Made by a program: the position numbers and the translations under genes. A DNA stretch of 64,000 nt, taken from NCBI GenBank assembly GCA_964596875.1, contig CAZQVT010000001.1:175161-239160 (forward strand), in the 5' to 3' direction. The notes beneath the pieces are model-generated. The model was not told where the DNA came from and searched no databases. It saw nothing but the letters and a program-made list of their open reading frames with translations. Shown one piece after another: positions 5,164 to 34,232 of the stretch. The stretch's first letter is position 1, and every line of letters starts with the position of its first letter. Source of the DNA: an uncultured Candidatus Saccharibacteria bacterium. Its GTDB lineage: Bacteria > Patescibacteriota > Minisyncoccia > Phycocordibacterales > DATDWN01.

Positions 5164-5192
5164 TTGACGTTTATTTAAATAAATGATATACT
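5164..5192 (+). promoter_or_regulatory. sigma70-like promoter TTGACG-17-TATACT driving GC-rich small ORF
   Basis: near-consensus -35/-10 with 17-nt spacer ~55 nt upstream of ORF; GGGAGG RBS at ~5233. Confidence 0.55.
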
Positions 5193-5247
5193 ATATATAG
5201 GTTAATCCGCTCAAGGTTTTGCCTTGGGAGAAGGGAGGTAGATCAAA

Positions 5248-5539: not shown

Positions 5540-6820
5540 ATGAGTATATTTAGTGATTTTAATGTTGTAAGATCAGAAGATTTTCTTGAGAATGGCATTC
5601 GAGTAGTGCTTTTTAAACGTGAAGGTGCTCCAATTACTACCACAGCAATTTTAAAATCTGGTTCAAGACATGATCCCGAATCTATGCCAGGGTTATCACA
5701 TTTTATAGAACATATGATTACAAACGGGTCAAAAGTTTTTCCTACTAAGGATCTTTTGGCAGAACATATAGAATCGGTAGGTGGTGTTTATAGGGCTAGT
5801 ACAGGTCAAGATTCTATGATTGTAGACACTGAAATTTCTGATAGAGCTGATTATTCAAGGGTGGTTGATATCTTTAAGGCAACATTATGTGAACCGTTGA
5901 TGGATATAAAGGTTTTTGAGAATGAAAAAAAAGTGGTTGTGAAAGAAATTAAAAAAAGTGAGTCAAATCCATCTCAAATTGTGATAAAAACTGCAAGACA
6001 GTTATTTTTTTATGGCACTCCGCTTGAACATCCTGTTCTGGGCGATGAAAAAGCAATATTAGATTTTAAGTATGAGGATGTTTTAGATCAACATGTAAAA
6101 CTATTTGATAAATCACGAATTAGCATTATTGTATCTGGTGATATTGAGATGGATATGGTTATTGAAAAATTGAATGAAATTTCGTTTTTAGAAGGAAATA
6201 ATTTTTTGCCAAAGGCTGATAATCTGAATTTTTTAAACGAAAAAAAAATAAAATCAACTTTTTTTGATACAACTCAAACTTATATTTATTTTGGTGTCCA
6301 AGCCCCAGCCTCGTTTACTAAGGATTCTCTACATTTAAATATTCTAGGAAGCATTCTTGCCGGAGGAAGAAATTCAAGGTTAACAAAAAAATTGAGATAT
6401 GAAAAAGGATTGGTGTACAATGTTGGTTTCGGAAGAATTGGTGGAGTAAAACAGGGTTCATGGAATATAATTACTGATACCACCGAGGACAAGGTTCAAG
6501 AAGTTATTGATGAAATTATTAGTGAGATTAGTGATATTAGAAATTTTGGAGTTAAAGATTCAGAATTGGAGTTCGTTAAGAATAAGAGAATAAAATCATT
6601 GAAAAGAAATATGCAGACATCAAATGATTGGGTTGATTTTCATGCAATTGCTGAGGTTTTTTCGGAACAAACTTATAGCATAAATACTTATGTAGAAGAT
6701 ATAAAGAATACTACTGTAGAAGATATAAAAAAAGTAATAGATAAATACTTAGTTGATGACAAATGGAAATTAGCATTGTGTGGTAGAATAAAAGAAGAAT
6801 CAGTTAATATTAATTGGTAG
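5540..6820 (+). CDS. M16-family zinc peptidase (insulinase/pitrilysin-like)
   Basis: inverted zinc motif HFIEH near N-terminus, ~425 aa. Confidence 0.75.
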   Translation: MSIFSDFNVVRSEDFLENGIRVVLFKREGAPITTTAILKSGSRHDPESMPGLSHFIEHMITNGSKVFPTKDLLAEHIESVGGVYRASTGQDSMIVDTEISDRADYSRVVDIFKATLCEPLMDIKVFENEKKVVVKEIKKSESNPSQIVIKTARQLFFYGTPLEHPVLGDEKAILDFKYEDVLDQHVKLFDKSRISIIVSGDIEMDMVIEKLNEISFLEGNNFLPKADNLNFLNEKKIKSTFFDTTQTYIYFGVQAPASFTKDSLHLNILGSILAGGRNSRLTKKLRYEKGLVYNVGFGRIGGVKQGSWNIITDTTEDKVQEVIDEIISEISDIRNFGVKDSELEFVKNKRIKSLKRNMQTSNDWVDFHAIAEVFSEQTYSINTYVEDIKNTTVEDIKKVIDKYLVDDKWKLALCGRIKEESVNINW

Positions 6821-6838: not shown

Positions 6839-7531
6839 ATGAAAAAAGAATACACAGCAAGTGTGCATGACAATTTATTTCTTCAATTTTCATATTTTTT
6901 TATAAAAATAACACTAGGGACGCTGGTTAGGCTCATTTGGGTAAAAAAAGTAGAGGGGCTCAAAAATATTCCGAAGGATGGACCCCTAATCATAGCATTC
7001 AACCACCAAAGTTTTTTTGATTTTTTGTGTTTTGTATCAGTATCACCAAGGAAAATACACTTTTTATCTGCTGAAAAATTTTTTTCTCATATTTTATGGG
7101 GGCCATTGGTTAAATTAACAAGTCAAATAAAAGTAGAAAGACAAAGCAGTGATAAAATTGGTCTTCATAAGATCGTTTATGAACATTTATCAAACAATAA
7201 GGTTATAGGGATTTTTCCAGAAGGAACAAGATCTCCTCACGAAAAAGAAATGCTATTGGCTTTTACTGGAGTTGCAGAGTTTGCTTTGCGTGGTGGAGTT
7301 CCAGTGGTACCAGTAGGTATTAGGGGTGCGTATGAAGTAATGGCAAAACATGATAAGACGCCAAAGTTCAAAAAAATAGTTACAATACATGTTGGTGAGC
7401 CAATGCATTTTAACGAGTATCACAAATCTAAACTTGATAAAAAAACATATAGACTTGTGACAAATAAAATAATGATAGAAATAGCCAAACTTTCGGAAAA
7501 AAATTATCCATATTTACATATAGAAGAATAA
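6839..7531 (+). CDS. 1-acyl-sn-glycerol-3-phosphate acyltransferase (PlsC family)
   Basis: NHQSFFD (HX4D) and FPEGTRS motifs. Confidence 0.75.
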   Translation: MKKEYTASVHDNLFLQFSYFFIKITLGTLVRLIWVKKVEGLKNIPKDGPLIIAFNHQSFFDFLCFVSVSPRKIHFLSAEKFFSHILWGPLVKLTSQIKVERQSSDKIGLHKIVYEHLSNNKVIGIFPEGTRSPHEKEMLLAFTGVAEFALRGGVPVVPVGIRGAYEVMAKHDKTPKFKKIVTIHVGEPMHFNEYHKSKLDKKTYRLVTNKIMIEIAKLSEKNYPYLHIEE

Positions 7532-8190: not shown

Positions 8191-9737
8191 ATTTATTTGG
8201 TATCACATCCATTATAATATTTTTCGCAAGTATAGGCTTTGGGCTGTTTTTGTACTCATCCAACAGAGAGTCACGAGTAAACAGGTCGTGGTTTGTCGTT
8301 TCGATATTCGTCGGACTATGGGGGCTGTCTTTATATGGAGTTACTTCAACATCAAATATTTTTATAGCAGAAAAGTGGCAGTATCTACTAGATATTTCAG
8401 CGACTCTTATTCCCGTAACGTACTTTGCGTTTGTTTGTGACTTGCTGGGCATTAATAATAGTTGGTTTAGACGTCTCATACTTTACATGGGTGCAGTCGT
8501 ATCAATTTTTAGTGTAACTCCTTATTTTAAACTTGGTGTACATGAAAAGTATGGTTTTTATTGGGTTAATCCAGGTTTTTATTATGAGGTGTTTCCATTA
8601 TTTTTTGGTGGAGTAACACTTATATGTTTAGTTTTTTTGATAATTGGATATAAAAATTCTAAAGATAGTGTGTTCAAGGCTCAAATTAGAAACACATTGT
8701 TGGCAGGGATTATAGGTTTTGGTGGTGGAATTACAAATTTTTTCCCGCAAGTTATAAATATATATCCTTTCGGTAACTATTTTGTGATTCTTTACGTTGC
8801 TTTGATGAGTTATGGAGTTTTGAGATATAAACTTTTGAGTAAAAAAATTATATCCGCTCAACTAGTGAGCGGTGCAATTGTTTTAGTATTTTTGTTTAAT
8901 CTATTACAACCATCATCCTTATTGAACTGGATAGTTAATTTGATTTTGTTTATCTTAGTTCTTATATTTTCAATCTTACTGGTTAAGGGTGTATATAATG
9001 AAATTAGTCAAAAAGAGCAGATAGAGAAACTTGCGGATGATTTGCAAACTGCGAACCAAGGACAAGTAAACCTGATCCATGTTATGAACCACCAAGTTAA
9101 GGGACATTTGGGAAATGCAAAAAATATTTTTGCTGAACTTCTAACTGACGATTATGGAGCAATGCCGGAAGATGCAAAACCACTTTTGGAAAAAGGATTA
9201 CAAGAAACGAATTTGGGAGTGGAGTATGTGCAAAACATATTGCGAGGTGCTTCTGCTGTTACTGGAACTCTGCCTTTTGATATGAAGCCAATAAACTTTA
9301 AGGAAATAGTAGAGGCTGTTTTTGAAAAACAAAAAGGCTACGCAGAAAATAAAGGGCTAAATATTTCTTTGGATATTAAGGAGGGTAAATATGATTTGAC
9401 GGGGGACAGTATACAACTTTCTGAGGCGGTTAAAAATCTTATCGATAATTCCGTGAATTATACGGAAAAAGGAAATATAGATGTAACTCTTTCTCAAGAA
9501 GATAAAATAAGTTTTGTAATAAAGGATACTGGTGTGGGAATTTCGGATGAGGACAAGCCAAAACTATTTAAGTCTGGAGGAAGAGGAACTGATTCACTAA
9601 AAATAAATATAAACTCAACTGGTTATGGTTTGGCTTTTGTAAAAGGTGTTGCTGAAGCACATAAGGGGAAAGTCTCAGCAATATCAGAGGGCGTTGGCAA
9701 AGGATCACAATTTGTACTAGAATTGCCTAAAAACTAA
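8187..9737 (+). CDS. sensor histidine kinase with multi-TM N-terminal domain (orphan)
   Basis: ~6 TM helices, H-box HVMNHQVKGHL, N/G boxes (DNSVNYT, GVGISDED, GYGLAF); ATGA overlap with upstream gene. Confidence 0.8.
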   Translation: MNLFGITSIIIFFASIGFGLFLYSSNRESRVNRSWFVVSIFVGLWGLSLYGVTSTSNIFIAEKWQYLLDISATLIPVTYFAFVCDLLGINNSWFRRLILYMGAVVSIFSVTPYFKLGVHEKYGFYWVNPGFYYEVFPLFFGGVTLICLVFLIIGYKNSKDSVFKAQIRNTLLAGIIGFGGGITNFFPQVINIYPFGNYFVILYVALMSYGVLRYKLLSKKIISAQLVSGAIVLVFLFNLLQPSSLLNWIVNLILFILVLIFSILLVKGVYNEISQKEQIEKLADDLQTANQGQVNLIHVMNHQVKGHLGNAKNIFAELLTDDYGAMPEDAKPLLEKGLQETNLGVEYVQNILRGASAVTGTLPFDMKPINFKEIVEAVFEKQKGYAENKGLNISLDIKEGKYDLTGDSIQLSEAVKNLIDNSVNYTEKGNIDVTLSQEDKISFVIKDTGVGISDEDKPKLFKSGGRGTDSLKININSTGYGLAFVKGVAEAHKGKVSAISEGVGKGSQFVLELPKN

Positions 9738-10426
9738 TGGCACAGGAACAAGTTTGGGACAGGGAATACAAAACATCAAAGCTTTTAACAAAAGACAACA
9801 AACCACAGTCAGATGTGGTGCGTTTTGTTAAATACTTAAAAAAAGATATTAGTTTTCAAATAGAAGGTGCGCAAGTTTTAGATCTTGGTTCTGGCGCAGG
9901 TAGAAACAGTTTTTATTTTGCAGAACTGGGTGCGAGTGTTGTGGGGCTTGAGATATCTAAAACTGCAGTAGAGATCGCAAATAAATACGCAACTGTGGCT
10001 GGGCTCAATATAAAATACATAAAACAAAGTATTGGAGAGACTTTTCCGGTAGAGGATAGTTCAGTAGACATTTTATTAGATATTACATCTTCAAACTCAT
10101 TAGATGAAAAAGAAAGAGAAGTTTATTTAAGCGAATCTCACAGAGTTTTGAAAAATAATGGAATATTTTTTGTAAAAGCACTTTGTTCGGAAGGGGATGA
10201 GAATGCAAAATTTTTAATAAAAAACCATCCTGGTAAGGAAAAAGATACATATATAATGCCGGAACTTGGTGTCACAGAACGTGTTTGGAGTAAGCAGGAT
10301 TTTGTAGATACTTATTCAAAATATTTCAAAGTATTGAATATGGAGAAAAAAACTAGTTATTCGAGGATGAATGGTCGCGTCTACAAACGTAACTTCTGGA
10401 TTTGTTACCTAAAAACAGAAAAATAG
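9737..10426 (+). CDS. class I SAM-dependent methyltransferase
   Basis: motif I VLDLGSGAGRN; TAATG overlap with kinase. Confidence 0.8.
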   Translation: MAQEQVWDREYKTSKLLTKDNKPQSDVVRFVKYLKKDISFQIEGAQVLDLGSGAGRNSFYFAELGASVVGLEISKTAVEIANKYATVAGLNIKYIKQSIGETFPVEDSSVDILLDITSSNSLDEKEREVYLSESHRVLKNNGIFFVKALCSEGDENAKFLIKNHPGKEKDTYIMPELGVTERVWSKQDFVDTYSKYFKVLNMEKKTSYSRMNGRVYKRNFWICYLKTEK

Positions 10427-10512
10427 CATCGTCTGCGTTGTTGCAGTTCAGTTTTGTTTGTTCACCTTACTACCTGTAAGGCTCACTCACAAAACTTCCT
10501 GCGCCTAGCATC
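10427..10512 (+). repeat. intergenic structured hairpin element, copy A (nested stems GTTTTGT/ACAAAAC and CCTTAC/GTAAGG)
   Basis: ~95% identical to copy B at 28221-28303; shares core with copies C, D, E. Confidence 0.7.
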
Positions 10513-10569
10513 CAATACTATTTATCTCCTTTTAGATTTACAAATGTTGTTTATCTGTAAAAATAAACA

Positions 10570-10597
10570 TTGACAAAATAGTTTTATTGTGTAATTT
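10570..10597 (+). promoter_or_regulatory. sigma70-like promoter TTGACA-16/17-TAATTT for GC-rich ORF
   Basis: consensus -35, AT-rich -10, AGGAGGG RBS at ~10621. Confidence 0.5.
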
Positions 10598-10633
10598 TAA
10601 TGTTGAACTGTTCCGACCCAAGGAGGGTCAAAG

Positions 10634-11305
10634 ATGGCGAAAAGCGTGAAAAAGGCTAAGGCTCGTCGAAACAACTGGAAGCGCGAAGCGACCGAAATCA
10701 TGGAGTTGCTGAAGGGCGCCAAGGCAACCATCGAGGCTCTCGAGCTCAAGCAGACTCAGTCGGATTCGGAGCTCGTCGGGGTGAAGGCCGAACTCGAATC
10801 GGCGAAGGCCGAACTCGACAAGGCCAAGGAAGAACTCGGTGCCGTGAAGGCCAAGTTGGCCGAAGTGGAGGCCGGCCTGTCGGCGCTGGAGACCACCAAC
10901 AAGGACCTGGTCAACAGGAACTTCGCTCTGGAAAGCGGCTTCTACGGCTCGCGTAGCAAGTCGCGTCGGCTCGAGAGTCGAAATCGCGAACTGCGGTTGG
11001 AAATCGACTCGCGCCGTCGGCTCGCCGGGGTTCTGGCTGTGTTTCATCACGCCAGTACCTGCACGGAGGACTGCTTAGAGGAGTTCGCGGCAGCCGGCCG
11101 GGCTGTGGGCGTCGACATCGACAAGATCGACAAGGCCCATGTGTCGGAAGCCTACAAGGCAGCCGGCCGTCGGCTTCACAAGCTGACCTGGGAGAAGGGT
11201 ATCCGCATGACCAAGTCGCACATGAGCCCTCAGTCAGCGACGGACTCACTCGAGGCTACGATCAACGCTGTCGAGCAGATGCTCGGGATGCGCGATCGGG
11301 TCTAG
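10634..11305 (+). CDS. coiled-coil hypothetical protein (223 aa), GC-rich minicassette 2
   Basis: heptad-like E/K/A/L-rich N-terminal half; strong RBS; GC ~58% vs ~35% flanks. Confidence 0.5.
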   Translation: MAKSVKKAKARRNNWKREATEIMELLKGAKATIEALELKQTQSDSELVGVKAELESAKAELDKAKEELGAVKAKLAEVEAGLSALETTNKDLVNRNFALESGFYGSRSKSRRLESRNRELRLEIDSRRRLAGVLAVFHHASTCTEDCLEEFAAAGRAVGVDIDKIDKAHVSEAYKAAGRRLHKLTWEKGIRMTKSHMSPQSATDSLEATINAVEQMLGMRDRV

Positions 11306-11323
11306 CCGAGGGGTGTAGAAGGT

Positions 11324-11358
11324 GGGGTGGCTTCGGTCGCCCCAGCTTCTTTTTTTTA
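11324..11358 (+). terminator. GC-rich hairpin + T9 run
   Basis: GGGGTGGC-TTCG-GTCGCCCC stem (with wobbles) followed by TTTTTTTTT. Confidence 0.6.
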
Positions 11359-11385
11359 TTTGAAATTTTGATATCATTTATAGTT

Positions 11386-18360: not shown

Positions 18361-19089
18361 ATGCCGGATGAGTTTCTAGTTAAAACACATATTTTTGAAG
18401 GTCCATTGGACACACTCCTTTCTCTTATTGAAAAAAGGAAACTTTTCATAAACGATATTTCACTTGCACAGGTTGCCGATGACTATATCGCGTATATAAA
18501 AACTCTAGAAAATTTTCCAATAGCCGACTCCTCACATTTTATTCTTATCGCATCAACCTTAGTTTTAATTAAATCAAAATCTTTACTACCAGACTTGCAA
18601 CTAACCCCCGAAGAAGAAGAAAACATTCACAACCTTGAGGATAGACTAAAGCAGTACCAAAAATATAAGGCACTTTCGCAACATTTGAAAGAAAAGTTTG
18701 GGATAAACATAGAGTACCTAAGACTTCCAAGCAAAGAAAAAAAGATCGTTTTTACTCCTGACAAAAACACTGACATCTCTAAAATGCGTGAAGCGGTAAA
18801 AATACTTATCCAAAACCTACCTAAAAAAGAATTCGTCCCAAAGGCTATAGTTCAAAAAGTTATTTCACTTGAGGAAATGATGGATAATTTGTCGGAAAGA
18901 ATCACAAAGAGTTTCAAAATGAGTTTTAAGGATTTTTCTGGACACGGCAAGGCGGAAAAGGTAAATGTGATAGTGAGTTTCCTTGCGATGCTTGAACTAG
19001 TAAAACAGGGGATAATAAATGTAAGACAAGATGCGGACTTTCATGATATTGAAATGGAGACACAATCCATCGGTGTTCCAAGGTATTAA
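18361..19089 (+). CDS. scpA: segregation and condensation protein A
   Basis: N-terminal FEGPLDxLLxLI signature. Confidence 0.85.
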   Translation: MPDEFLVKTHIFEGPLDTLLSLIEKRKLFINDISLAQVADDYIAYIKTLENFPIADSSHFILIASTLVLIKSKSLLPDLQLTPEEEENIHNLEDRLKQYQKYKALSQHLKEKFGINIEYLRLPSKEKKIVFTPDKNTDISKMREAVKILIQNLPKKEFVPKAIVQKVISLEEMMDNLSERITKSFKMSFKDFSGHGKAEKVNVIVSFLAMLELVKQGIINVRQDADFHDIEMETQSIGVPRY

Positions 19090-19090
19090 A

Positions 19091-19213
19091 ACTTCCAAAT
19101 TTGGCGATCTACTCGTTTCAAAATTGAAAATGTTCGTCACCTTACTACTTGTAAGGCTTCTCACATTTTCAATTCCTCAACTTTGTGTCTCATCCAAATT
19201 GTGAAAGTTTGTT
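19091..19213 (+). repeat. intergenic structured hairpin element, copy C
   Basis: outer stem ATTGAAAATG/CATTTTCAAT, internal loop TTCGTCA/CTTCTCA, inner stem CCTTAC/GTAAGG, 3' tail CAAATTGTGAAAGTTTG; homologous to copy D. Confidence 0.7.
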
Positions 19214-19236
19214 GTATAATAAAAATATAAAATAAA

Positions 19237-19770
19237 ATGAATTTAGAAAAACAAATTGAGGCAATACTTTTTTATACTGGGGAACCGGTGAAAATTAGTT
19301 TTTTGGCGAAAACTTTAGAAGTAAAAATAGATGCTATTCGCGAGGCGCTTCAAAACCTTGTAACTAGTTTGGAAAATAGAGGTCTAAAGATGGTGGAACA
19401 CAACGAGGAAGTCTCTCTCGTTACTTCACCTGAACTTGCACCACTTATAGAGAAAATCATAAAAGAAGAAAGAGAAAGAGAGTTGGGCAGAGTAGGGCTA
19501 GAGACTCTTACTATTGTGGCTTACAAAGGACCTATATCTAAAAAGGAAATAGAGTACATAAGAGGGGTAAACTCTCAATACGCTATACGAAACCTGCTTT
19601 TGCGTGGCCTTATAGAGCGAAATGGTGTGGATGGCAGGGTGGTTTACACTGTTACATCTGATACAATTAGATTTCTGGGACTTACAAAAATTTCAGACCT
19701 TCCAGAGTATGCAGAAATGAACAAAAGTCTAGAAGTGGCAGACGAAACAACAGATGAAGTAGAAGAGTAA
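19237..19770 (+). CDS. scpB: segregation and condensation protein B
   Basis: ScpB-like winged-helix repeats, 177 aa, downstream of scpA. Confidence 0.85.
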   Translation: MNLEKQIEAILFYTGEPVKISFLAKTLEVKIDAIREALQNLVTSLENRGLKMVEHNEEVSLVTSPELAPLIEKIIKEERERELGRVGLETLTIVAYKGPISKKEIEYIRGVNSQYAIRNLLLRGLIERNGVDGRVVYTVTSDTIRFLGLTKISDLPEYAEMNKSLEVADETTDEVEE

Positions 19771-19774: not shown

Positions 19775-20713
19775 ATGGAGCATCAAAAAATTTCTAAAAA
19801 ATTATATATATTTAATATTGTTTTGGTTTTGGCGGTAGTTTTCATGACTTTTCTTTTATACCAAAACTCTATTCAGAAAAAAGTTGAAAAAATAGTAAAA
19901 GCGAAGGTGGAGAAAAAAAGTTTGGCAATGTTTGAAAATGTAAATGTGAAAGCAAAAGCAGTTTTGGTTTACGACTTAGCTGACAACAGAGTTTTGTATG
20001 CAAAAAACGAGGGAACTCAGTTGCCACTTGCATCTATCACAAAACTAATGACGGCTTTGGTTGCTACAGAACTTTTACCAAAAGACTCCAAGATAACATT
20101 AAAAAGTGAGTTTTTGCGTGAAGAGGGGGACTCTGGCTTAGCGGTTTCAGAGTCTTGGAACCTAAAAGAGTTGCTAGACTTTTCACTTGTGACTTCTTCT
20201 AACGACGGTATGCGTTCAGTAGCGTCTGTTATAGGTGCAGTTAAACTAAACTCAAAAGACTATGACTTGGGAAGAAAAGATTTTATTGAAAAAATGAACA
20301 AGCGTGCAAAAGAGTTGGGTCTAGCACAAACTTTCTTTGTAAATGAAACAGGTCTTGATGTGGGCAATGTAAGTGGGGGATATGGCTCTGCAAATGATGT
20401 AACAAGTCTAGTAAAGTACATGATACGAAACAGACCAGAAATACTAGAAGCTACAAAGTTTCAAAAACTAACTATAGATTCTGATACAAAAAAACATACA
20501 GCAAAAAATACAAACGATATTGTAAACGAGATACCGGGACTGTTTGCATCTAAAACTGGATACACAGATATGGCCGGTGGAAACCTAGTTGTTGCTTTTG
20601 ATCCAAGTTTGGGTAAACCAATAATTGTTACTGTGTTGGGTTCTACACAAGATGGAAGGTTCACCGATGTGGAAACTCTAGTTGATGTAACACTAGATTA
20701 CTTAAACCAATAG
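19775..20713 (+). CDS. D-alanyl-D-alanine carboxypeptidase (S11, PBP5-like)
   Basis: N-terminal TM, SxxK motif SITK, SxN motif SSND, KTG motif. Confidence 0.8.
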   Translation: MEHQKISKKLYIFNIVLVLAVVFMTFLLYQNSIQKKVEKIVKAKVEKKSLAMFENVNVKAKAVLVYDLADNRVLYAKNEGTQLPLASITKLMTALVATELLPKDSKITLKSEFLREEGDSGLAVSESWNLKELLDFSLVTSSNDGMRSVASVIGAVKLNSKDYDLGRKDFIEKMNKRAKELGLAQTFFVNETGLDVGNVSGGYGSANDVTSLVKYMIRNRPEILEATKFQKLTIDSDTKKHTAKNTNDIVNEIPGLFASKTGYTDMAGGNLVVAFDPSLGKPIIVTVLGSTQDGRFTDVETLVDVTLDYLNQ

Positions 20714-20840
20714 AAAATTTTCAAATTTGGCCAATCTCATCTTCTAAATTTTCAAAATTCTCGTCACCTTAGCACTAACTAAGGCTTCTCACATTTTCAA
20801 AATTTATAAGCGACCTTGTCTCAAATTGTGAAAGTTTGAA
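20714..20840 (+). repeat. intergenic structured hairpin element, copy D
   Basis: inner stem CCTTAG/CTAAGG compensatory relative to copy C; conserved flanks and GTGAAAGTTTG tail. Confidence 0.7.
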
Positions 20841-20850: not shown

Positions 20851-20898
20851 AAACGAAAAGGCCGACACGATAGTCTGTATGACCTGATCGTATCGGCC
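20851..20898 (-). terminator. hairpin GGCCGA(T)ACGAT...ATCGT(G)TCGGCC + TTTTCGTTT ending GC-rich minicassette 3
   Basis: 11-bp imperfect inverted repeat followed by T run on - strand, just after stop of 20917 ORF. Confidence 0.55.
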
Positions 20899-20916
20899 GA
20901 AGCCCGTGTGTGTGGG

Positions 20917-21186
20917 CTAGAACCGCTTACTGACGTACTTGAGTGCTTCCCAGGTGAGTAACACCAGTGAGGAGTACACGATTGGCAGTGACGCCAGTCC
21001 GTACTCGTAGCTCTCGGTGAACATGGAGACCATGAGTCCCAGAGTCAGTACTCCGTGCAGAAGCAGGGGAACGAAGTACAGTACTATTGCAGGGAGAACG
21101 AGGCTAATGATTGCCCCGAACACCCTGAGCCACTTGTCGTCTCGATACCCGCCCATGAGGAGCGGGTTAAAGCCCAAGCATCCCAT
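20917..21186 (-). CDS. hypothetical small membrane protein (89 aa, ~2 TM), gene 3 of GC-rich minicassette 3
   Basis: ATG preceded by GGAGGAGCG; hydrophobic helices; GC-rich. Confidence 0.45.
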   Translation of the reverse strand: MGCLGFNPLLMGGYRDDKWLRVFGAIISLVLPAIVLYFVPLLLHGVLTLGLMVSMFTESYEYGLASLPIVYSSLVLLTWEALKYVSKRF

Positions 21187-21194
21187 CGCTCCTC

Positions 21195-21299
21195 CTACAT
21201 CTTGAAGGCGATAACCGCCAGGATTACGGCGATGCAGCCCAAGGCGAATTGGATTTCTCTTGTAGCCTTCTTGAAGTACTCGAACTGTTCTTCGGTCAT
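21195..21299 (-). CDS. 34-aa single-TM peptide (MTEEQFEYFKKATREIQFALGCIAVILAVIAFKM), gene 2 of minicassette 3
   Basis: not in ORF track (<60 aa); ATG 6 nt after TAGGAGGCT RBS; stop 8 nt before next ATG. Confidence 0.4.
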   Translation of the reverse strand: MTEEQFEYFKKATREIQFALGCIAVILAVIAFKM

Positions 21300-21309
21300 G
21301 CCTAGCCTC

Positions 21310-21735
21310 CTATCGAAGTTGGACCATCTCGCCGACCACGTCGTCCTTGCCTTCGAGGCTTTGGACGATGAAGTTGGTTGCTCCGCAGGCGTCGCAGAGG
21401 AACTTCACGACATCCATCTTCTGGATCTCGAGTTCCTCCACCTTGTCGATCGTGACGAAGTTCTTGTCGACGATCTTGCCGAGATGCACTCGGACCTTGC
21501 CCGTTGTGTTCAACTTGAACGCGATCACTCCGGGCTTGGTGTCGTACCGGAGCTTCATCCCGATGGCGCTGTGAGGCACGATGGTGAACTGGACGGAGTT
21601 TTCAAGTGCGATCGCGTACGGCTTCATGGGCTGGGTTGTTTCCACCCAGTAAACCATTGAAACTATCGCGACCGTGAGTGCGCAAATGACGAGTATTCCT
21701 CGCCAGTGGCGGGACAGAGTAGTGTCTTCGGTCAT
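21310..21735 (-). CDS. hypothetical membrane-anchored protein (141 aa, N-terminal TM), gene 1 of minicassette 3
   Basis: ATG 6 nt after GGAGGCC RBS, consensus promoter upstream. Confidence 0.5.
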   Translation of the reverse strand: MTEDTTLSRHWRGILVICALTVAIVSMVYWVETTQPMKPYAIALENSVQFTIVPHSAIGMKLRYDTKPGVIAFKLNTTGKVRVHLGKIVDKNFVTIDKVEELEIQKMDVVKFLCDACGATNFIVQSLEGKDDVVGEMVQLR

Positions 21736-21754
21736 GCTGTGGCCTCCGATATTA

Positions 21755-24746: not shown

Positions 24747-25859
24747 ATGGAGGAGTTTAGATATGAGTACGAACATGTGGGCAGAGATTCTGAAGATGTT
24801 GCAAAATCAGTAGAGTCAAAAAGAGCAGATAGAGAATTATACGATGAATTCCATGTATATTCAGTAGAGAATATTTCTGCGGCGTTAGATTCTTTGGATG
24901 AAGCAAGATTGGAAGAAGGCCTAAGTGCTGAATTAAGGGTTAAGGCACTTAACGGAAGATTAAAAAATGCTTACGCGTCTTTTATTCAAAGTTCTACATT
25001 TGAGGTTAAAAAGAGTTTAATTAGGGACTTGTCTCAAGATAGCGCCTTGCTTGATGAAATGTTAGATAAGTCGCTAGTAGTTAGTGATGTTGATGATATT
25101 CCTCCAGAAATGATTGCTAAAATTTTGAGATTAAGACTAGTTTCGAATGAAAGAAGGGAAAAAATTCTAAATGAGAAACTGGGAGAAATGTTGGGTGAAG
25201 TTAAAAAACAAATAATTGAAGGAATAAAACAAGGAATTGTTAAAAGGACTGAAGAAGAGGTGGATAAAATAATTAGTTCCTTTAGTTTTAAAACTTTTGA
25301 CCCATTTTTTATAGGTCATACAGCTTACGCACTTCATAATGCCAGTATAAGAGTTATAGAACTTGCGACAGATGTAAATGTTGAACAAGCACCTCATTTT
25401 ATTTTGCATGAAATAATGCATTCACTCTCTGGTATTACAATACTGGGAGAGAAAAATCCTATTGATGATAAGGTAGATACTATTACAAATCAAAGAGTTG
25501 GCTTGATGTTTTTTGGCTTCGATCACGAAAGCGGCAAATTAAATGGTAGAAAATTAGATTGGATAAATGAAGCTGTTACTGAAGAAATTACAATGAATTT
25601 ATCTGGGAAATCGGTGAATGTGTATTCTGTAGAAAGAAGAAAGTTAAAAAAGCTTTATGAACTAGGAGTTGATCGTGAAATAATATATAATGCATACTTT
25701 GAGGACTACAATCCTGACGATCCTGAAAGAGTTCCTCATTGGAAAAAGTTTGTAGCAGAACTAAAGAAAATTTTCCCGGATATGTCTGTTTTGCAAGCAT
25801 TGGAACATGTTAGTTCTTTGGTAGAAGAAGAGATTAAAAATGAAAAAACTCAAAGTTGA
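24747..25859 (+). CDS. hypothetical protein with HExxH motif (HEIMH) in the murD position of the dcw cluster
   Basis: 370 aa, acidic, no Mur ligase motifs. Confidence 0.45.
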   Translation: MEEFRYEYEHVGRDSEDVAKSVESKRADRELYDEFHVYSVENISAALDSLDEARLEEGLSAELRVKALNGRLKNAYASFIQSSTFEVKKSLIRDLSQDSALLDEMLDKSLVVSDVDDIPPEMIAKILRLRLVSNERREKILNEKLGEMLGEVKKQIIEGIKQGIVKRTEEEVDKIISSFSFKTFDPFFIGHTAYALHNASIRVIELATDVNVEQAPHFILHEIMHSLSGITILGEKNPIDDKVDTITNQRVGLMFFGFDHESGKLNGRKLDWINEAVTEEITMNLSGKSVNVYSVERRKLKKLYELGVDREIIYNAYFEDYNPDDPERVPHWKKFVAELKKIFPDMSVLQALEHVSSLVEEEIKNEKTQS

Positions 25860-26952: not shown

Positions 26953-27078
26953 ATGAATCCCGTAAGAAATTATTTAGTTAAAAGGATGAATGTGGTTATG
27001 TGTGATAAAATTATTCGAACAAACATTATTATTAATTTTATATACGGAAACTAAAGTTTCCTATTTCAAACGGGATGA
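26953..27078 (+). promoter_or_regulatory. structured leader / TIR element L2 enclosing murG start codon
   Basis: 5' arm ATGAATCCCGTAAGAAAT, penultimate hairpin ACGGAAAC-TAAA-GTTTCC, 3' arm TATTTCAAACGGGATGA. Confidence 0.6.
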
Positions 27079-28208
27079 AAATATTACTTACTGGTGGAGG
27101 TAGCGCAGGACATTTTTACCCACTTGTTGCGGTTGCACAAAAACTAAATGAACTAGCAAAAGAAAACAGGCTTTTGAAACCAGAGTTGTACTATATGTCG
27201 ACTGACCCTTTTGACGAAAACCTTTTGTACGAAAACAGTATTACCTTTATAAAAGTAAACGCGGGAAAAATCCGAAAAGATAAAACACTTTCGAACAGAA
27301 TCCTAAACTTTATGGATTTGTTTAGTACTTTTCACGGAGTGCTTACAGCGCTTTGGAAAGTTTTTGTTATTTATCCAGATGTAGTTTTTGGAAAAGGGGG
27401 CTATGTGAGTTTCCCAGCACTTTTTGCAGCAAGGTTTCTAGGAATACCGGTAGTGATACACGAGTCAGACAGTAAACCTGGAAAAGTAAACGCTTGGGCT
27501 GGAAAGTTTGCAACAAAAGTTGCGGTTTCATACCCCGATGCCGCTTCATACTTTAAGGCTGAAAAAACTGCCTACACCGGTAACCCGATAAGAAAAGAAA
27601 TAGAAGACCCACAAGTTTCTGGTTCACACGAGCATTTTGGTTTCGACAGCAGTATACCTACAGTTTTTGTTATAGGTGGTTCACAGGGTGCTCGTTTCAT
27701 AAACAGCGCTATCATGGATGCTTTGCCAGAACTTGTAAAGAAATACCAAGTCATACATCAGACGGGCGTAAACAACCTTTCCGTTATTCAGGAGACTTCT
27801 GCGGTGGTGCTTTTAAACAGTGAACACAAGGAAAGATACGTGGCAATACCGTACCTAAACGCCCTAAACCTGCGTATGGCGGCGGGGGCTGCAGATGTGA
27901 TAGTATCACGAGCAGGTTCAACTATATTTGAAATAGCGAGTTGGGGCAGGGCTTCTATTATTATCCCTATCCCAGAGCCAACAAGTCATGACCAAAAAAC
28001 AAACGCTTATGCCTATGCTAGAAGTGGCGCTGCGGTTGTAATAGAAGAAAAAAACATGGCACCAGGAATACTACTAGCAGAGATACAAAGAGTAGTAACT
28101 GTTGAAAAAGAAAAAATGCAGGCTGCAGCAAAAGCATTTTCTAGAAGAGATTCTGCAAGACTCATAGCCGAAGAGTTGATAGCAATCGGCCTACAACACG
28201 AGAGATGA
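27075..28208 (+). CDS. murG: undecaprenyldiphospho-muramoylpentapeptide beta-N-acetylglucosaminyltransferase
   Basis: N-terminal ILLTGGGSAGH motif, GT28 fold. Confidence 0.85.
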   Translation: MKILLTGGGSAGHFYPLVAVAQKLNELAKENRLLKPELYYMSTDPFDENLLYENSITFIKVNAGKIRKDKTLSNRILNFMDLFSTFHGVLTALWKVFVIYPDVVFGKGGYVSFPALFAARFLGIPVVIHESDSKPGKVNAWAGKFATKVAVSYPDAASYFKAEKTAYTGNPIRKEIEDPQVSGSHEHFGFDSSIPTVFVIGGSQGARFINSAIMDALPELVKKYQVIHQTGVNNLSVIQETSAVVLLNSEHKERYVAIPYLNALNLRMAAGAADVIVSRAGSTIFEIASWGRASIIIPIPEPTSHDQKTNAYAYARSGAAVVIEEKNMAPGILLAEIQRVVTVEKEKMQAAAKAFSRRDSARLIAEELIAIGLQHER

Positions 28209-28303: not shown

Positions 28304-28336
28304 TGAACCAATTTAAATCATCTCAGAACAAATTAT

Positions 28337-29800
28337 ATGAACGATAAAAAAGTAGTAACAAGATTCGCACCTAGTCCAACTGGGTTCATGCATATAGGCG
28401 GTGTTCGCACTGCTCTTTTTGCATACTTGTACGCTAAAAAAATGAAAGGTACTTTTATACTTCGTATCGAAGACACTGATAAGGCACGAGAAGTGGAAGG
28501 TTCAATAGGTCACATACAAGAGTCGCTAAAATGGCTAGGTATCGACCCAGACATAGGTCCAAACAATCCTGGCGAGTTCGGTACTGTTATCCAGTCTGAG
28601 AGACTTCCATCATATCTAGAGTATGCAAATAAACTAATAGAAAAAGGTTTGGCATATCCTGACCCCTATACTGCAGAAGAACTAGATGCTTTTCGTAAAA
28701 AAGCTGAGGAAGAAAAAAGACCTTTTCTGTACCGTGACCACAGACCAGAAAAATTTGAAACTTGGGATGGTAAAAAACCTTTGCGTCTAAAAGTTCCAGA
28801 AATAAAAAGATACAAATGGACCGATGCTGTTCGTGGTGAACTGGAGGCGGGACCAGAAGCACTAGATGACTTTGTGCTTATCAAAGCAGACGGATATCCG
28901 ACATACAACTTTGCACATATTATAGACGACTTAAACATGGGCGTGACACATATCATGCGCGCTGATGAGTTTATTTCTAGCATGCCAAAGTTTCTTTCAC
29001 TATATGATGCACTTGAAATCCCATATCCTGTTTTTGTAACACTTCCTCCTATACTTAAAGACGACCGCACAAAAAAACTTGGTAAAAGAGACGGAGCAAA
29101 AGATATTTTAGAATACAGAACAGAGGGATATCTGCCAGAAGCCATGGCAAACTTTCTCGCACTTATCGGTTGGAACCCGGGTACAGAACAAGAAGTATTT
29201 ACAAAAGATGAACTTATAAACGCATTTGAAATAGAAAAAATTCAGAAATCTGGAGGCGCATTTAACGAGGAAAAACTAGACTGGATGAACAAAGAGCACA
29301 TGAAAAGATTGGACTTAAAAACTGTAACAGACGAGATTGTTTCTCGTCTAAAAAAGTGTGACAAGTTTCAAAATAGTGAAAAGTTTGAAGACTCTGCATT
29401 TGTAGAGAAAGTTTGTCATATAATCTTTGACCATATTTCAAAATGGGGAGATGTAGATGTACAAGCAGGGGAGGGGGAATATGACTTTTATTTCGGCATA
29501 CCCGCATATGACACTACCCTACTTTCATGGAAGGGAAGTAGTCTAGAAAACTCCAAAAAACACCTTGAGTGGGTTTTGGAGAAACTATCTAGTTTGAATG
29601 AAGTAGAGTTTGCAGACGCAGAAAAAATAAAAGCGCATATTTTTGACTATGCTACAGAACAAGGACGTGGTGATGTATTGTGGCCGCTACGAGTTTCACT
29701 TTCTGGCCTAGAAAAAAGCCCTGACCCATTTTCACTTCTTTCTATATTTGGAAAAAATGAAAGCATAAACAGAATAAAAAATGCATTAAATAAGTTGTAA
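28337..29800 (+). CDS. gltX: glutamate--tRNA ligase
   Basis: N-terminal RFAPSPTGFMHIGGVRTALF (HIGH), KLGKRDG (KMSKS-like). Confidence 0.9.
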   Translation: MNDKKVVTRFAPSPTGFMHIGGVRTALFAYLYAKKMKGTFILRIEDTDKAREVEGSIGHIQESLKWLGIDPDIGPNNPGEFGTVIQSERLPSYLEYANKLIEKGLAYPDPYTAEELDAFRKKAEEEKRPFLYRDHRPEKFETWDGKKPLRLKVPEIKRYKWTDAVRGELEAGPEALDDFVLIKADGYPTYNFAHIIDDLNMGVTHIMRADEFISSMPKFLSLYDALEIPYPVFVTLPPILKDDRTKKLGKRDGAKDILEYRTEGYLPEAMANFLALIGWNPGTEQEVFTKDELINAFEIEKIQKSGGAFNEEKLDWMNKEHMKRLDLKTVTDEIVSRLKKCDKFQNSEKFEDSAFVEKVCHIIFDHISKWGDVDVQAGEGEYDFYFGIPAYDTTLLSWKGSSLENSKKHLEWVLEKLSSLNEVEFADAEKIKAHIFDYATEQGRGDVLWPLRVSLSGLEKSPDPFSLLSIFGKNESINRIKNALNKL

Positions 29801-29805: not shown

Positions 29806-31077
29806 ATGAGATGGCAGAAATACATACTTTTTCTAATACTCCTACTTTCAACTAGTATTGCTATTGCCCAAAACGCCACAACTTCAGAAGTTCTAAAAAA
29901 CAAAATCGACGAAAGAAACAACCAGATAAAAAAACTTGAAGAAGAAATAAAAGTCTACAACAAAGAAGTAGAAACTGCTGGCAAACAAGCCAAGACTTTG
30001 CAGACTACACTAAAAACTCTTGACCTTACCAAAAAGAAAATCGAAACGGATATTTCGCTTACAGAAAACAAAATAACTAAAACTACCCTAACTATAGATC
30101 AACTTGGTCAAGAAATAGGTACTACTAGAAGCAAAATAGATGTAAACAAACAGGCTATAAGTGCGGCACTCAAAAATAGACAGTACATGGACAGTACTGA
30201 CTTTATTAGTATGATGCTGTCGAAAAAAAGTCTGGGTGAAATATGGGGCGACATAGACGACATAGAGGAAGTTCGTGAAGCGATACGTGTAAAGACTTTG
30301 GAGTTAGACTCTCTAAAGAAAAATATGGAAAACAATCAAGAAAATCTAAAAGGTGAAAAGACCAACTTGGTTACCCTAAAACAAGACCTCTCTGGTAAAA
30401 AACAAGCCGTAGAATACACAACTCAGGAAAAGGCTGCGGTGCTAGTTGAAACAAAAAATAAAGAACAAACATACAAAGAACTTGTAAAAACAAAACAACA
30501 ACAAAAAGATCAGTTCGAGAAAGAACTTTTCGAATACGAGTCACAACTAAAATATCTTATCGACCCAAACAGTTACCCTAAAGGTAGAAGCGGAATTTTT
30601 GCGTGGCCACTAGATAAAGTTATCATTACACAAAAGTTTGGTAAAACTGTTGGCGCAGAAAAACTATACGCATCTGGTAGTCACAATGGTGTAGACTTTG
30701 GCGCAAGTATTGGAACAAGAGTTAAAAATGTTTTAGACGGAGAAGTTGTGGGTACAGGGGACACAGACAAATACCCTGGCTGTTACTCTTTTGGTCGCTG
30801 GGTTATGGTAAAACACGGCAATGGTCTCTCTACAATATACGGACACCTTTCTGTGATAAGTGTGCAGAAAGGTCAAACACTTAAGACTGGAGATACGATA
30901 GGTTTTTCTGGAAACACAGGTTACTCTACTGGTCCGCATTTACATATATCTGTTTATGCGACTCAAGGTGTGCGTATAGAAAAATACGTAAATAGTAGGG
31001 GATGTAAAGAGGCGACTCTCCCACTTGCCGACATCAAAGCCTACCTAGACCCACTGGCATACTTCCCATCACTTTAG
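29806..31077 (+). CDS. M23 family metallopeptidase with N-terminal coiled coil (EnvC-like)
   Basis: signal/TM, long coiled coil, HNGVDFGA...GNTGYSTGPHLH M23 motifs. Confidence 0.85.
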   Translation: MRWQKYILFLILLLSTSIAIAQNATTSEVLKNKIDERNNQIKKLEEEIKVYNKEVETAGKQAKTLQTTLKTLDLTKKKIETDISLTENKITKTTLTIDQLGQEIGTTRSKIDVNKQAISAALKNRQYMDSTDFISMMLSKKSLGEIWGDIDDIEEVREAIRVKTLELDSLKKNMENNQENLKGEKTNLVTLKQDLSGKKQAVEYTTQEKAAVLVETKNKEQTYKELVKTKQQQKDQFEKELFEYESQLKYLIDPNSYPKGRSGIFAWPLDKVIITQKFGKTVGAEKLYASGSHNGVDFGASIGTRVKNVLDGEVVGTGDTDKYPGCYSFGRWVMVKHGNGLSTIYGHLSVISVQKGQTLKTGDTIGFSGNTGYSTGPHLHISVYATQGVRIEKYVNSRGCKEATLPLADIKAYLDPLAYFPSL

Positions 31078-31101
31078 GCATATATTTGGTATAATAAACA
31101 T

Positions 31102-31308
31102 ATGAAAAAACCTAGAACAAACCAAGGATTTGTAGTGAAAATTGTTTTGATCATCGTTGCGCTTATCTTTGTGAAATACTATTTCCATATAGATATAGTT
31201 GAATGGTATAAGTCTCCTACAGGCCAAAAGTACGTTGGAAGTATCTGGAATATGATAAAGGACTTCTACAACTGGGCCGACAACTACGCTAGGACTAAGG
31301 TGTTTTAG
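31102..31308 (+). CDS. small hypothetical membrane protein (68 aa)
   Basis: ORF only; stop abuts stop of convergent RloB-like gene. Confidence 0.25.
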   Translation: MKKPRTNQGFVVKIVLIIVALIFVKYYFHIDIVEWYKSPTGQKYVGSIWNMIKDFYNWADNYARTKVF

Positions 31309-31830
31309 TTACGAATTGAATAATTTATGTATTTCAGGAAAGTATGTTTTGAAAATAATATTGTTTGGTATTATCTTTATTAAATCAATATTTTTCATGT
31401 GTTGTGCTTCCTTGCCGAAGTGGCTCAAAAAATTCTTTTTACAGATGGATCTGAAATTTTTTGAATCGATAGTATTTTTGATTTTTTTACCCACTATTTC
31501 CAGTAAGACACCCTCTGGATTGGGGTTACATAATTGAACTTTGTGGCGAAGACCTTTTATGTATAGTGCTATTTTTTGAGAATCATCAAGATCGTAGTCC
31601 GCCATAAAAAAGAAGTGGATTTTCTCACTTAGTTTTTTTGGTTTAATTTCATACTTTCGTGTTAAGCTAGAAACTTTATTACTGAAAGTCTTTAAGTCAT
31701 TAAACCCCCCCATAATCTCATATTTAAAAGATAAGGGCTTTGAGCAAAAATAAGTTTTGAAAAATCCAAAAAGATTGTATTCTGTGGGTCCTTCACAACA
31801 TATCACATATACATCCTTGGTACTTCTCAT
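31309..31830 (-). CDS. RloB-like (TOPRIM-like) protein, AbiLii-like
   Basis: N-terminal VYVICCEGPTEYNLF matches RloB family CEGxxTExxYF signature; 14 nt downstream of AAA_21 ATPase gene. Confidence 0.6.
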   Translation of the reverse strand: MRSTKDVYVICCEGPTEYNLFGFFKTYFCSKPLSFKYEIMGGFNDLKTFSNKVSSLTRKYEIKPKKLSEKIHFFFMADYDLDDSQKIALYIKGLRHKVQLCNPNPEGVLLEIVGKKIKNTIDSKNFRSICKKNFLSHFGKEAQHMKNIDLIKIIPNNIIFKTYFPEIHKLFNS

Positions 31831-31843
31831 AAATAGTTTATTT

Positions 31844-34198: not shown

Positions 34199-34232
34199 AA
34201 AAGACCACCTTTCTTTCGATTGGTGGTCTTTT
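34199..34232. terminator. bidirectional hairpin AAAAGACCACC...GGTGGTCTTTT
   Basis: A-run/T-run flanked perfect 7-bp GC-containing stem, 2 nt from stop of 34235 gene. Confidence 0.55.

Follow-up and report, generated by a model that had tools for sequence, protein, structure and literature searches.

Among the short palindromic repeats that are scattered between bacterial genes, the enterobacterial ERIC/IRU elements come closest to the subject of this report. They are 127 bp long, form an imperfect palindrome over their whole length with a conserved central inverted repeat, lie in transcribed intergenic DNA and occur in tens of copies per genome. They are conserved across genera beyond the level of neutral DNA, the sites that they occupy differ by species, and insertions of ~70 bp are found at fixed internal sites. 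Their function is unproven, and an RNA hairpin affecting the mRNA has been proposed. Here we describe a hairpin-forming repeat of ~125 nt in a 64,000-nt stretch of DNA labelled as an uncultured Candidatus Saccharibacteria bacterium (GenBank assembly GCA_964596875.1, contig CAZQVT010000001.1, positions 175,161 to 239,160 of the forward strand), called the window throughout and numbered from its first letter. The repeat is fastened to the stop codons of genes and appears to be previously undescribed; by analogy, it is close in kind to the ERIC/IRU, REPIN and Correia elements.

The likeness to ERIC/IRU extends over size, palindromic build, conserved centre, dispersal, shifting occupancy of sites and internal inserts (of ~43 and ~70 nt here). 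It is a likeness by analogy only, the core motif and the phylum being different. The REP/BIME and REPIN-RAYT elements are likewise extragenic palindromes at the 3' ends of genes or between convergent genes, for which single-stranded DNA (ssDNA) or RNA hairpins have been proposed, and REPINs are ~100-nt hairpins with long vertical persistence. In contrast to these, the repeat described here has no GTAG-type 5' tetranucleotide and no REP doublets, its apex and not the base of its stem is conserved, and its copies are diverse within a genome (mean identity 0.59) with no clustering around a master sequence. An earlier interpretation of this DNA from its letters alone, hereafter the sequence-only reading, had not recognised a REP type either, and the single long hairpin with its conserved apex agrees with that. 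The Correia/NEMIS, RUP and BOX elements offer a comparable size of 100-150 bp, inverted termini, co-transcription, long RNA hairpins and sometimes an overlap with stop codons. In these, however, the terminal repeats are best conserved, TA target duplications occur and many copies are recent and nearly identical. Here the termini vary between types, a target duplication could not be defined and the copies are old; BOX is also modular, whereas the present repeat is a single hairpin. Two phage structures may be compared by analogy, namely the RNase III hairpins of T7, which are intercistronic, follow right after a stop codon and hold a conserved internal loop between covarying stems, and the rutA-boxB-rutB region of lambda tR1, with its C-rich single strands on a hairpin scaffold for Rho. 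Neither is related in sequence, and the repeat is twice as long and would reach, by extrapolation, about 80 copies per genome. The attC sites of integrons (the Vibrio VCRs are 120-130 nt) resemble it in that they are imperfect palindromes of similar size at or over the stop codon of an open reading frame (ORF) and that the strand antisense to the ORF is the folded one, but the present repeat has no R-box consensus, forms no arrays and follows core genes, and no integrase was seen among the genes scanned. To our knowledge, neither a lock on the stop codon (a 70:4 strand bias here) nor a strong asymmetry of folding between the strands is established for ERIC, REPIN, Correia, RUP or BOX.

A covariance model (CM) of the repeat, called R1, was searched against the window with filters off and returned exactly six copies, about one per 10 kb. 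They are given below together with the module on which the family is best recognised.

10410-10534, + strand: copy A, type 1; CM 44.5 bits, nhmmer E=2.6e-14
19087-19211, + strand: copy C; CM R1 134.5 bits
19134-19162, + strand: invariant apical module of copy C, TCGTCA-CCTTAC-loop-GTAAGG-CTTCTC; its columns are invariant in alignments of 84 and of 36 sequences
20713-20838, + strand: copy D; CM 79 bits
28201-28325, + strand: copy B, type 1; CM 49.8 bits
38775-38898, + strand: copy E, type 3; CM 70.1 bits
62159-62282, - strand: copy F, diverged; CM 55.6 bits with the model strand opposite to that of A-E, nhmmer E=1.5e-11

Copies A to E had been located by the sequence-only reading and were found at those places on inspection of the sequence. 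The units had been drawn too short (83-86 nt for A and B, 44 nt for F), since every copy is about 125 nt long. The suspicion of a sixth, diverged copy was borne out by both nhmmer and the CM, while its place and strand had to be corrected: the interval proposed for F, 62197-62240, is only the apical part of that copy, read on the opposite strand. The core that had been recognised in A-E, TCGTCACCTTA-loop-TAAGGCT(Y)CTCRC, is indeed common to them and had no match in 100 shuffles of the window; its degenerate form matches the window three times at up to two mismatches. A species-representative genome collection was scanned with the core pattern and gave at least 112 loci. Model R1 recovered at least 108 distinct copies in 84 sources, among them about 20 in which the exact core of the scan is absent. 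The construction and search of a covariance model, which had been proposed as a check on the family, yielded six copies in the window and at least 108 in related genomes, with compensatory changes among them.

All six window copies and the 108 related ones are single hairpins of ~125 nt between genes. Each copy folds as one long imperfect hairpin and not merely as the short inner stem, with z scores for the sense strand (that of the upstream gene) of -2.0 to -4.8. From base to tip, the hairpin consists of a basal stem, a lower internal region that is asymmetric in purines and pyrimidines, an A/U-rich stem of ~11 bp, and the apical module TCGTCA-CCTTAN-loop-N'TAAGG-CTYCTC, which is invariant around an apical loop of 5-8 nt with free sequence. 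In the commonest types, the basal stem is formed by TAAAACTTCCAAATTTGG and CCAAATTGTGAAAGTTTTA, and in type 1 (copies A and B) it is copy-specific yet paired. There are at least five types, which differ in the lower half, have the apex in common and are mixed within genomes. The extra 5' CAAATTTGG and 3' CAAATTGTGAAAGTTTG modules that had been noticed in copies C and D were confirmed; they pair with each other as the basal stem of the long hairpin and belong to the family consensus. The length of the hairpin is defined, pairing not continuing past the ends of the model (mean run 2.3 compared with 2.5 in controls). An extension of pairing into copy-specific flanks was therefore rejected: none was found outside the 125 positions of the model, which include the copy-specific stems of type 1. 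Between CCTTA and TAAGG lie 6 to 9 nt, a variation that fits a hairpin and argues against a rigid dimer bound to an operator on duplex DNA.

Covariation was tested on a MAFFT alignment of 36 copies that had not been fitted to the structure, using 500 shuffles as well as partner columns slid out of register. Paired cells reached 96.7%, compared with 89.5±0.4 in the shuffles; compensatory changes were found at 18 of the 36 pairs, and compensatory cells numbered 93 as against 20.5±6.2. None of the 500 shuffles attained the observed value on any of five covariation measures, and pairing fell to 28-57% when the partner columns were slid by 1-3 positions. Across the 108 copies most pairs show 3-4 Watson-Crick types, for example C-G 41 / U-A 37 / G-C 17 / A-U 8. 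The pair that closes the loop alternates between C-G, G-C and T-A in the window, as the sequence-only reading had noted (C-G 68, U-A 24 and G-C 12 in the larger set), and the outer stems do differ in sequence while keeping their pairing. Indels between the types limited RNAalifold to the apical stem when all types were put into plain MAFFT alignments; alignments per type and the CM overcame this. Covariation alone does not prove an RNA, as templated (quasi-palindrome) mutation of DNA could also give compensatory changes.

The age of the repeat was judged from orthologous sites, at which the upstream proteins are 70-91% identical. At these sites the repeats are 0.71-0.94 identical, compared with 0.69-0.83 for the last 300 nt of the upstream genes and 0.44-0.79 for the 100 nt downstream of the repeat. 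Copies from one genome are on average 0.59 identical and copies from different genomes 0.58 (within-genome maximum 0.92), and the nearest relative lies in another genome for 81 of 91 copies, which speaks against a recent burst and against concerted evolution. From these comparisons of sequence it is well supported that the repeat is old, under purifying selection on both sequence and pairing, and not decaying. A selected hairpin of RNA or ssDNA, as opposed to a decaying repeat, had been the central proposal of the sequence-only reading, and it is upheld by the significant covariation, by an ortholog conservation at least as high as that of coding DNA and by the lack of homogenisation within genomes.

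Site occupancy differs between relatives at 75-80% nucleotide identity, which are denoted here by locus numbers. In L112, murG and gltX are adjacent (AGATAAATATATG) and the site is empty where the window has copy B; in the same relative, a copy stands in place of an extra gene of the window (24747-25859). L023 carries a copy between its histidine-kinase and methyltransferase genes, where the window has a TAATG overlap, and in L114 a SET-domain gene stands in place of copy C. No consistent target-site duplication was found at one clean empty/filled pair (murG|gltX of L112). The histidine-kinase ORF of L023 reads about 30 nt into its copy (reverse strand, about 3990-4060), so that the first bases of the repeat encode the conserved C-terminus of the kinase. 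The corresponding 3' end in the window (9700-9740; CTAGAATTGCCTAAA, LELPK) and the 5' terminus of the L023 repeat (CTAGAACTTCCAAAT, LELPN) are alike at 12 of 15 positions, for which coincidence, insertion guided by microhomology and a deletion remnant are all possible.

The position of the repeat is tied to the end of the gene before it. A sense ORF of at least 60 codons stops between -7 and +17 nt from the 5' end of the repeat in 85 of 108 copies, most often at +2, and the stop codon (TAA 59, TAG 23, TGA 3) lies in or beside the first bases of the basal stem. In 15 copies the stop of a convergent gene also abuts the other end, while among those that abut one ORF only, 70 are in the sense and 4 in the antisense orientation. 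It had been claimed that all copies lie on the + strand regardless of the neighbouring genes; this does not hold for F, and the rule is instead that a copy lies on the same strand as its upstream gene. Copies A-D are on the + strand among + genes, F is on the - strand among - genes, and E is the only exception in the window. Gene direction and GC skew flip together at about 32 kb, where cumulative GC skew peaks and which looks like a replication terminus; as a result, the direction of genes and that of replication are inseparable in this window. This region (~30000-34000) also holds an AAA_21/AbiEii-like ATPase gene (31844-33052, - strand) and several ORFs without a family match, and a bidirectional canonical terminator lies at about 34200-34230.

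The genes that precede the repeat are of many kinds. The 67 upstream proteins fall into 54 clusters, by which a gene-specific cis-regulator, such as a riboswitch or leader, was ruled out. Copies stand at conserved positions after housekeeping genes (rplK, tuf, rpsJ, scpA, murG, ychF and others), and such genes as rplK (in two genomes), tuf, rpsJ, lemA and those of a TPM-domain protein and an MFS transporter have a copy on either side; none of the bracketed genes encodes a transposase. In 32 of 81 copies no more than 40 nt lie between the 3' end and the next co-directional start codon (12 nt for B, 26 nt for C and 22 nt for F), and many copies are thus intercistronic; in 19 the distance exceeds 150 nt. 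A fixed distance to the downstream start, as for a ribosome-binding site or coupling module, was rejected on the breadth of this distribution.

As to hosts, about 80 of the matches listed are metagenome-assembled genomes (MAGs) of Patescibacteria, with several loci per genome; the labels among them are Zambryskibacteria, Paceibacterota, Parcubacteria, Minisyncoccia, Nomurabacteria and 'Saccharibacteria'. Matches in Prevotella and other bacteria outside the candidate phyla radiation (CPR) lie inside conserved coding sequence, show no similarity in the flanks and were set aside as unrelated. Proteins of many third-party annotation (TPA) MAGs called 'uncultured Candidatus Saccharibacteria bacterium' are 70-91% identical to those of Zambryskibacteria, Paceibacterota and Parcubacteria MAGs (loci L006-L113), and one contig with a typical copy is labelled Alphaproteobacteria (L010). 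The taxon labels of these TPA MAGs look unreliable, and in view of the protein identities across labels the carriers were treated as one sub-lineage of Parcubacteria and not as two phyla; a conservation across phyla, Saccharibacteria plus Parcubacteria, would probably be an artefact of the labels. Among the matches listed, the closest genome to the window is CAZSNI01, which is syntenic at 75-79% nucleotide identity. The ScpB of the window was found elsewhere only on one Logan contig, at 99.7% identity. Of 18 metagenome loci with relatives of ScpB, only the closest, at 83% identity, has copies, and none was found at any of those with 45-65% identity, which confines the family to the sub-lineage. 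Diverged forms are present in a Nomurabacteria MAG and in UBA6201 (L092, L087). That the repeat is a lineage-specific family of Zambryskibacteria-like Parcubacteria (Patescibacteria/CPR) is well supported, and six copies per 64 kb extrapolate to about 80 per ~1-Mb genome.

Searches of databases and literature gave no description of the repeat. Over the whole window Rfam 15 gave no match at gathering score, and at E<=1 the sole match was an irrelevant snoRNA model inside scpB, in line with the sequence-only reading, which had not recognised a known Rfam family; around copies C and D nothing overlapped convincingly at E<=10. A scan of a viral collection produced one chance match without flank similarity. 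The literature consulted on hairpins, repeats, terminators, small RNAs and Rho in Patescibacteria and Saccharibacteria does not describe the repeat, and a 2022 preprint on the transcriptome of Saccharibacteria strain TM7x remarks on the absence of validated small RNAs.

The stop-codon anchoring, the 70:4 bias, the highly expressed housekeeping hosts, the intercistronic sites and the composition of the sense strand together point to an element acting in the upstream transcript. We tentatively favour, with a little less than even confidence, a gene-end or intercistronic hairpin module, similar to ERIC and REPIN, that would act in the transcript of the upstream gene and be bound by a predicted factor. 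The repeat would be co-transcribed with that gene as a 3' untranslated or intercistronic segment and serve as gene-end punctuation. Its sense hairpin would be moderately stable, and the internal loops would display C/U-rich, G-poor single strands. With its base at the stop codon, the hairpin would form only on untranslated RNA, and a terminating ribosome would have to open the base. A putative conserved trans-factor would bind the invariant apical and internal modules, and the output may be the fate of the transcript at the boundary, either protection or processing of the 3' end or a conditional, Rho-like termination coupled to translation. An obligatory stop it cannot be, since in about 40% of copies no more than 40 nt separate the 3' end from the next start codon. 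A C-rich, G-poor untranslated stretch of about 80 nt or more is what a rut-like site would present, yet the sense RNA is significantly structured (z -2 to -4.8); a tblastn search with an approximate E. coli Rho query gave no match in ~1 Mb of genome fragments, which is uninformative on fragments. The sense strand of the repeat contains C at 23.2% and G at 13.6%, giving a C/G ratio of 1.71 compared with 0.78 in upstream coding DNA, and the biased stretch begins immediately downstream of the stop codon. The apical loop, where neither strand is paired, shows the same excess (C 86, G 49 on the sense strand), and this points to a constraint on the sense strand itself.

A number of observations weigh against an element that acts in the upstream transcript. 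Canonical terminators stand elsewhere in the window, so that the organism needs no such repeat to terminate transcription. The antisense RNA strand folds better in 84 of 84 copies (mean minimum free energy, MFE, -48.5 compared with -33.8 kcal/mol) and, with DNA parameters, in 83 of 84. Over the 108 copies, canonical pairs make up 94.4% on the antisense strand, with 352 G·U, compared with 85.9% and 32 G·U on the sense strand, and isolated mismatches in the sense helix are C·A in 70 cases and G·U in 5; selection for a helix of sense RNA would normally give the opposite pattern of wobbles. A comparison of the two arms that is free of energy models gave, for the sense strand, 691 C·T/T·C, 293 C·A/A·C, 129 T·T, 65 C·C, 91 G·T and 79 purine-purine mismatches. 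At several of the covarying pairs wobbles outnumber every other state, as in U·G 69 / U-A 15 / C-G 14. The antisense apex reads 5'-UGAGGAG[CCUUAN...N'UAAGG]UGACGA-3' (GAGAAG-CCTTAC-loop-GTAAGG-TGACGA on the minus strand of copy C), that is, a G·U and two tandem G·A/A·G pairs separated by G-C. The tandem G·A is invariant, and type 1 inserts a whole U-A pair between the two, so that the antisense strand looks like a designed helix. The conserved asymmetric internal loop of the sequence-only reading needs correcting on this point: its sequence is conserved, but it is unpaired on the + strand only, and its complement forms the G·U and the two tandem G·A pairs. A constraint on sense composition (C/U-rich, G-poor) would by itself yield purine-purine and G·U juxtapositions on the complement. 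Mutational bias was rejected as the cause of the asymmetry: the sense strand of the genome is rich in G and A, and deamination of an exposed strand would add G·U to the sense strand, contrary to what is observed. Within the repeat, the sense strand also has two sequences like the 3' tail of 16S rRNA (UCACCUUA and CUCCUC), and its complement hence has GAGGAG and UAAGGUGA, which are like a Shine-Dalgarno motif.

The asymmetry is accounted for most directly if the active strand is the one antisense to the upstream gene, as an ssDNA hairpin or an antisense RNA; this is the main rival reading, which we consider possible but less likely. It might be the substrate of an enzyme acting on ssDNA hairpins, in the manner of REPIN/RAYT, the ends of IS200/IS605 or the attC bottom strand; it might also be a polar insulator, a strong hairpin only for RNA polymerase moving in the antisense direction, with sense transcription reading through. 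On the antisense strand, the template of transcription and of leading-strand synthesis, the helix is hardly interrupted once G·U and tandem sheared G·A pairs are counted. The fold statistics (MFE, 352 against 32 G·U, C·A against G·U at 70 to 5) are explained best in this way. The sense mismatches, of which 885 are pyrimidine-pyrimidine and 79 purine-purine, also speak for it, as does the invariant tandem G·A with its compensated base-pair insertion in type 1. The order of ORF and then hairpin, with an antisense folding strand, is that of attC sites in chromosomal integrons, and filled and empty sites coincide with differences in gene content between relatives. An antisense RNA, however, would need a promoter, for which most copies leave no room, with 0-40 nt before the next start in about 40% of them and no conservation of the flank. 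For ssDNA, the strand exposed at the fork, the lagging-strand template, would be the sense strand of co-oriented genes. No transposase, RAYT or integrase was seen beside the copies; these are old and not homogenised, unlike an active REPIN population, their hosts are core genes in conserved operons and not cassettes, and the depletion of G on the sense strand reaches the apical loop, where pairing cannot explain it. A more specific version is that of a new kind of chromosomal 'gene-end mark' in Parcubacteria: the active form would be the antisense strand, folded as ssDNA (or transcribed as antisense RNA) into a hairpin of G·U and tandem G·A pairs, which a putative conserved protein would read. 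It might, in a polar manner, insulate the 3' ends of ~80 genes per ~1-Mb genome against antisense or convergent transcription or replication-transcription conflicts, or serve as an attC/REPIN-like recombination substrate for gene gain and loss at operon junctions; we regard this version as doubtful.

Three further explanations were weighed. Integron-type attC sites for cassette exchange, in a scatter like that of CALINs (clusters of attC sites lacking integron-integrases), would suit an imperfect palindrome of ~125 nt at or over a stop codon, with AAC...GTT ends and a better-folding antisense strand, in relatives whose gene content differs at the repeat sites. The ends are TAAAAC/GTTTTA, however, and not the R''/R' consensus RYYYAAC/GTTRRRY; the centre is conserved between species, which is not a property of attC; the copies lie about 10 kb apart after core genes and not in arrays; the extra gene of a relative comes without a repeat of its own; and no IntI-like gene was present among the genes scanned. 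This explanation is accordingly very improbable. A non-canonical bidirectional intrinsic terminator, in which the long hairpin would stand between an A-tract and a short U-tract on either strand (TAAAAC...GTTTTA), is improbable to a lesser degree. Copies do lie at gene ends, 15 fit exactly between two convergent stops, D is at a convergent junction, a TATAAT box follows copy C just before scpB, and both strands end in GUUUUA. The 32 of 81 copies with a co-directional start within 40 nt would nevertheless leave no room for a new promoter, and the basal stem is A/U-rich with mismatches, its U-run being ~4 nt and itself paired. GC-rich canonical terminators with long T-runs occur elsewhere in the window (for example at 11316-11357, 20860-20900 and 34200-34230), the terminator scan flags other window sites and not the repeats on the sense strand, and stability of the hairpin alone does not explain the invariant non-Watson-Crick positions. 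About equally improbable, in our estimate, is a purely selfish miniature inverted-repeat transposable element (MITE) without host function, for which adjacency to stop codons and orientation would reflect tolerated insertion sites in compact genomes. Presence/absence polymorphism (B absent from L112, an extra copy in L023, C replaced in L114), inverted-repeat termini (AACTTCC...GGAAGTT), nested insertions of 43 and ~70 nt at fixed internal sites and ORFs that read into the repeat would all be expected of such an element. It does not fit that the centre is conserved best while the termini differ between types, that orthologous copies are conserved at least as well as coding DNA with adjacent spacers near random, or that near-identical copies within a genome are rare (mean 0.59, maximum 0.92). 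Nor was a target-site duplication definable, a parent element or transposase present in ~1 Mb of fragments, or a copy found in viral contigs.

Genomes of the ultra-small CPR/Patescibacteria are about 1 Mb in size with a coding density of roughly 94%. About 80 repeats of 125 nt would take up roughly 1% of such a compact genome, under selection as strong as that on proteins, which implies that they do real work, in the expression of genes or the upkeep of the genome, in organisms about whose regulation hardly anything is known. With the family come a ready covariance model for the annotation of these genomes and a natural test case of the fixation of palindromic repeats at stop codons. That the best-folding strand is not the mRNA is a testable puzzle: if the antisense strand is the active one, the repeat would represent a new class of ssDNA or antisense 'punctuation', and if the sense strand is, it would be the first candidate for a cis-acting mRNA element common to a CPR lineage.

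In the window, the genes beside the copies were identified by Pfam as a SAM (S-adenosylmethionine) methyltransferase before A, MurG before and GltX after B, ScpA before C, an S11 carboxypeptidase before D, GrpE and DnaK around E, and YchF before and a cupin after F. The upstream products that had been guessed from the translations, namely the SAM methyltransferase, MurG, ScpA and the D-Ala-D-Ala carboxypeptidase, were correct. Copy A overlaps the final 17 nt of the methyltransferase ORF (9737-10426). Copy B overlaps the final 8 nt of murG (27075-28208), and the ATG of gltX (28337) lies 12 nt past its end. The 5' end of copy C is the TAA stop of scpA itself (19087-19089), with the ATG of scpB (19237) 26 nt past the 3' end; its folds reach -30.6 kcal/mol (sense) and -46.4 kcal/mol (antisense), so that its better-folding strand is the minus strand. 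The D-Ala-D-Ala carboxypeptidase gene (19775-20713) ends in a TAG whose final base is the first of copy D, which faces a convergent pair of small minus-strand ORFs with a canonical terminator of their own (about 20860-20900). Copy E is placed 20 nt before the ATG of dnaK (38755), on the + strand, whereas the operon around it (grpE-orf-dnaK) is encoded on the minus strand; the strongly folding strand of this copy is the mRNA-sense strand, unlike that of the other window copies. Copy F overlaps the stop of ychF (62265-63266, minus strand), and the start of the cupin gene (62137) is 22 nt beyond.

The unannotated orf of that operon encodes 101 aa (38932-39237, minus strand) between grpE and dnaK and starts 1 nt past the grpE stop; copy E follows 33 nt after it. 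The native genes beside the copies have A/T-rich leaders without a Shine-Dalgarno motif (for example 19225-19237, 28325-28337 and 38755-38775). Copies C and D had been seen as direct repeats flanking a block of genes, for which no evidence of joint action was found; relative L114 has D without C. No RAYT or transposase, which had been suggested as a search target, was seen among the genes beside copies or the window genes scanned, a search that covered only ~1 Mb of genome fragments.

The 'GC-rich minicassettes' after copies A and D had been proposed to use the repeat as a landing site. This found no support, the minicassettes being ordinary, foreign-looking genes with their own promoter and canonical terminator. 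The one after copy A (10540-11360) is a 223-aa ORF (10634-11305) with weak coiled-coil/SMC-like matches only. It has TTGACA/TAATTT promoter-like boxes of its own and a strong AAGGAGG ribosome-binding site, which the neighbouring genes lack, and a very strong terminator follows it (-23 kcal/mol plus T8, about 11316-11357). The syntenic relative L023 has neither copy A nor this ORF nor the next gene, and the ORF looks like a foreign insertion. After copy D, the minus-strand ORFs 20917-21186 (89 aa) and 21310-21735 (141 aa) have no family match; their terminator, on the minus strand at about 20860-20900, consists of GGCCGATACGAT...ATCGTGTCGGCC plus TTTTCGTTT. This pair (20860-21740) is kept in L001 and L114.

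Two kinds of insert were found within copies of the repeat. A hairpin insert of ~43 nt, CACAAGrGyACTTCTTGTTTTATAAAyAAAACAAwGTCGCTC, occupies the lower internal region in L006 (6590-6640) and L071 (4990-5035), in the 5' arm of one and the 3' arm of the other and in the same orientation; it may be either an optional extra stem or a smaller second mobile element that targets the repeat. A structured insert of ~70 nt lies within the apical stem of a copy in L114 (2405-2480), or replaces part of it, and related inserts of ~70 nt are present in L005 (1585-1647) and L065 (minus strand, about 7226-7290). Its sequence runs …GGTACACCTTTCGC-loop-GCGCTCAAGGTCTTGCGAAAGTG-loop-CACTTTC.

A scan for tRNA and tmRNA found none. 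Other short repeats in the window include a 32-nt direct repeat with 91% identity (GATTWAGTCGCCATAGTACGAGGCGG...) at 39887-39918 and 40235-40266, 348 nt apart, near terminator-like hairpins upstream of rpsI; it has no relation to the hairpin repeat described here. In the spacer between the + strand genes 4465-5148 and 5540-6820, under a minus-strand ORF (5191-5442), short tandem 9-nt repeats (CGGAGACGA-like) occur at 5300-5380.

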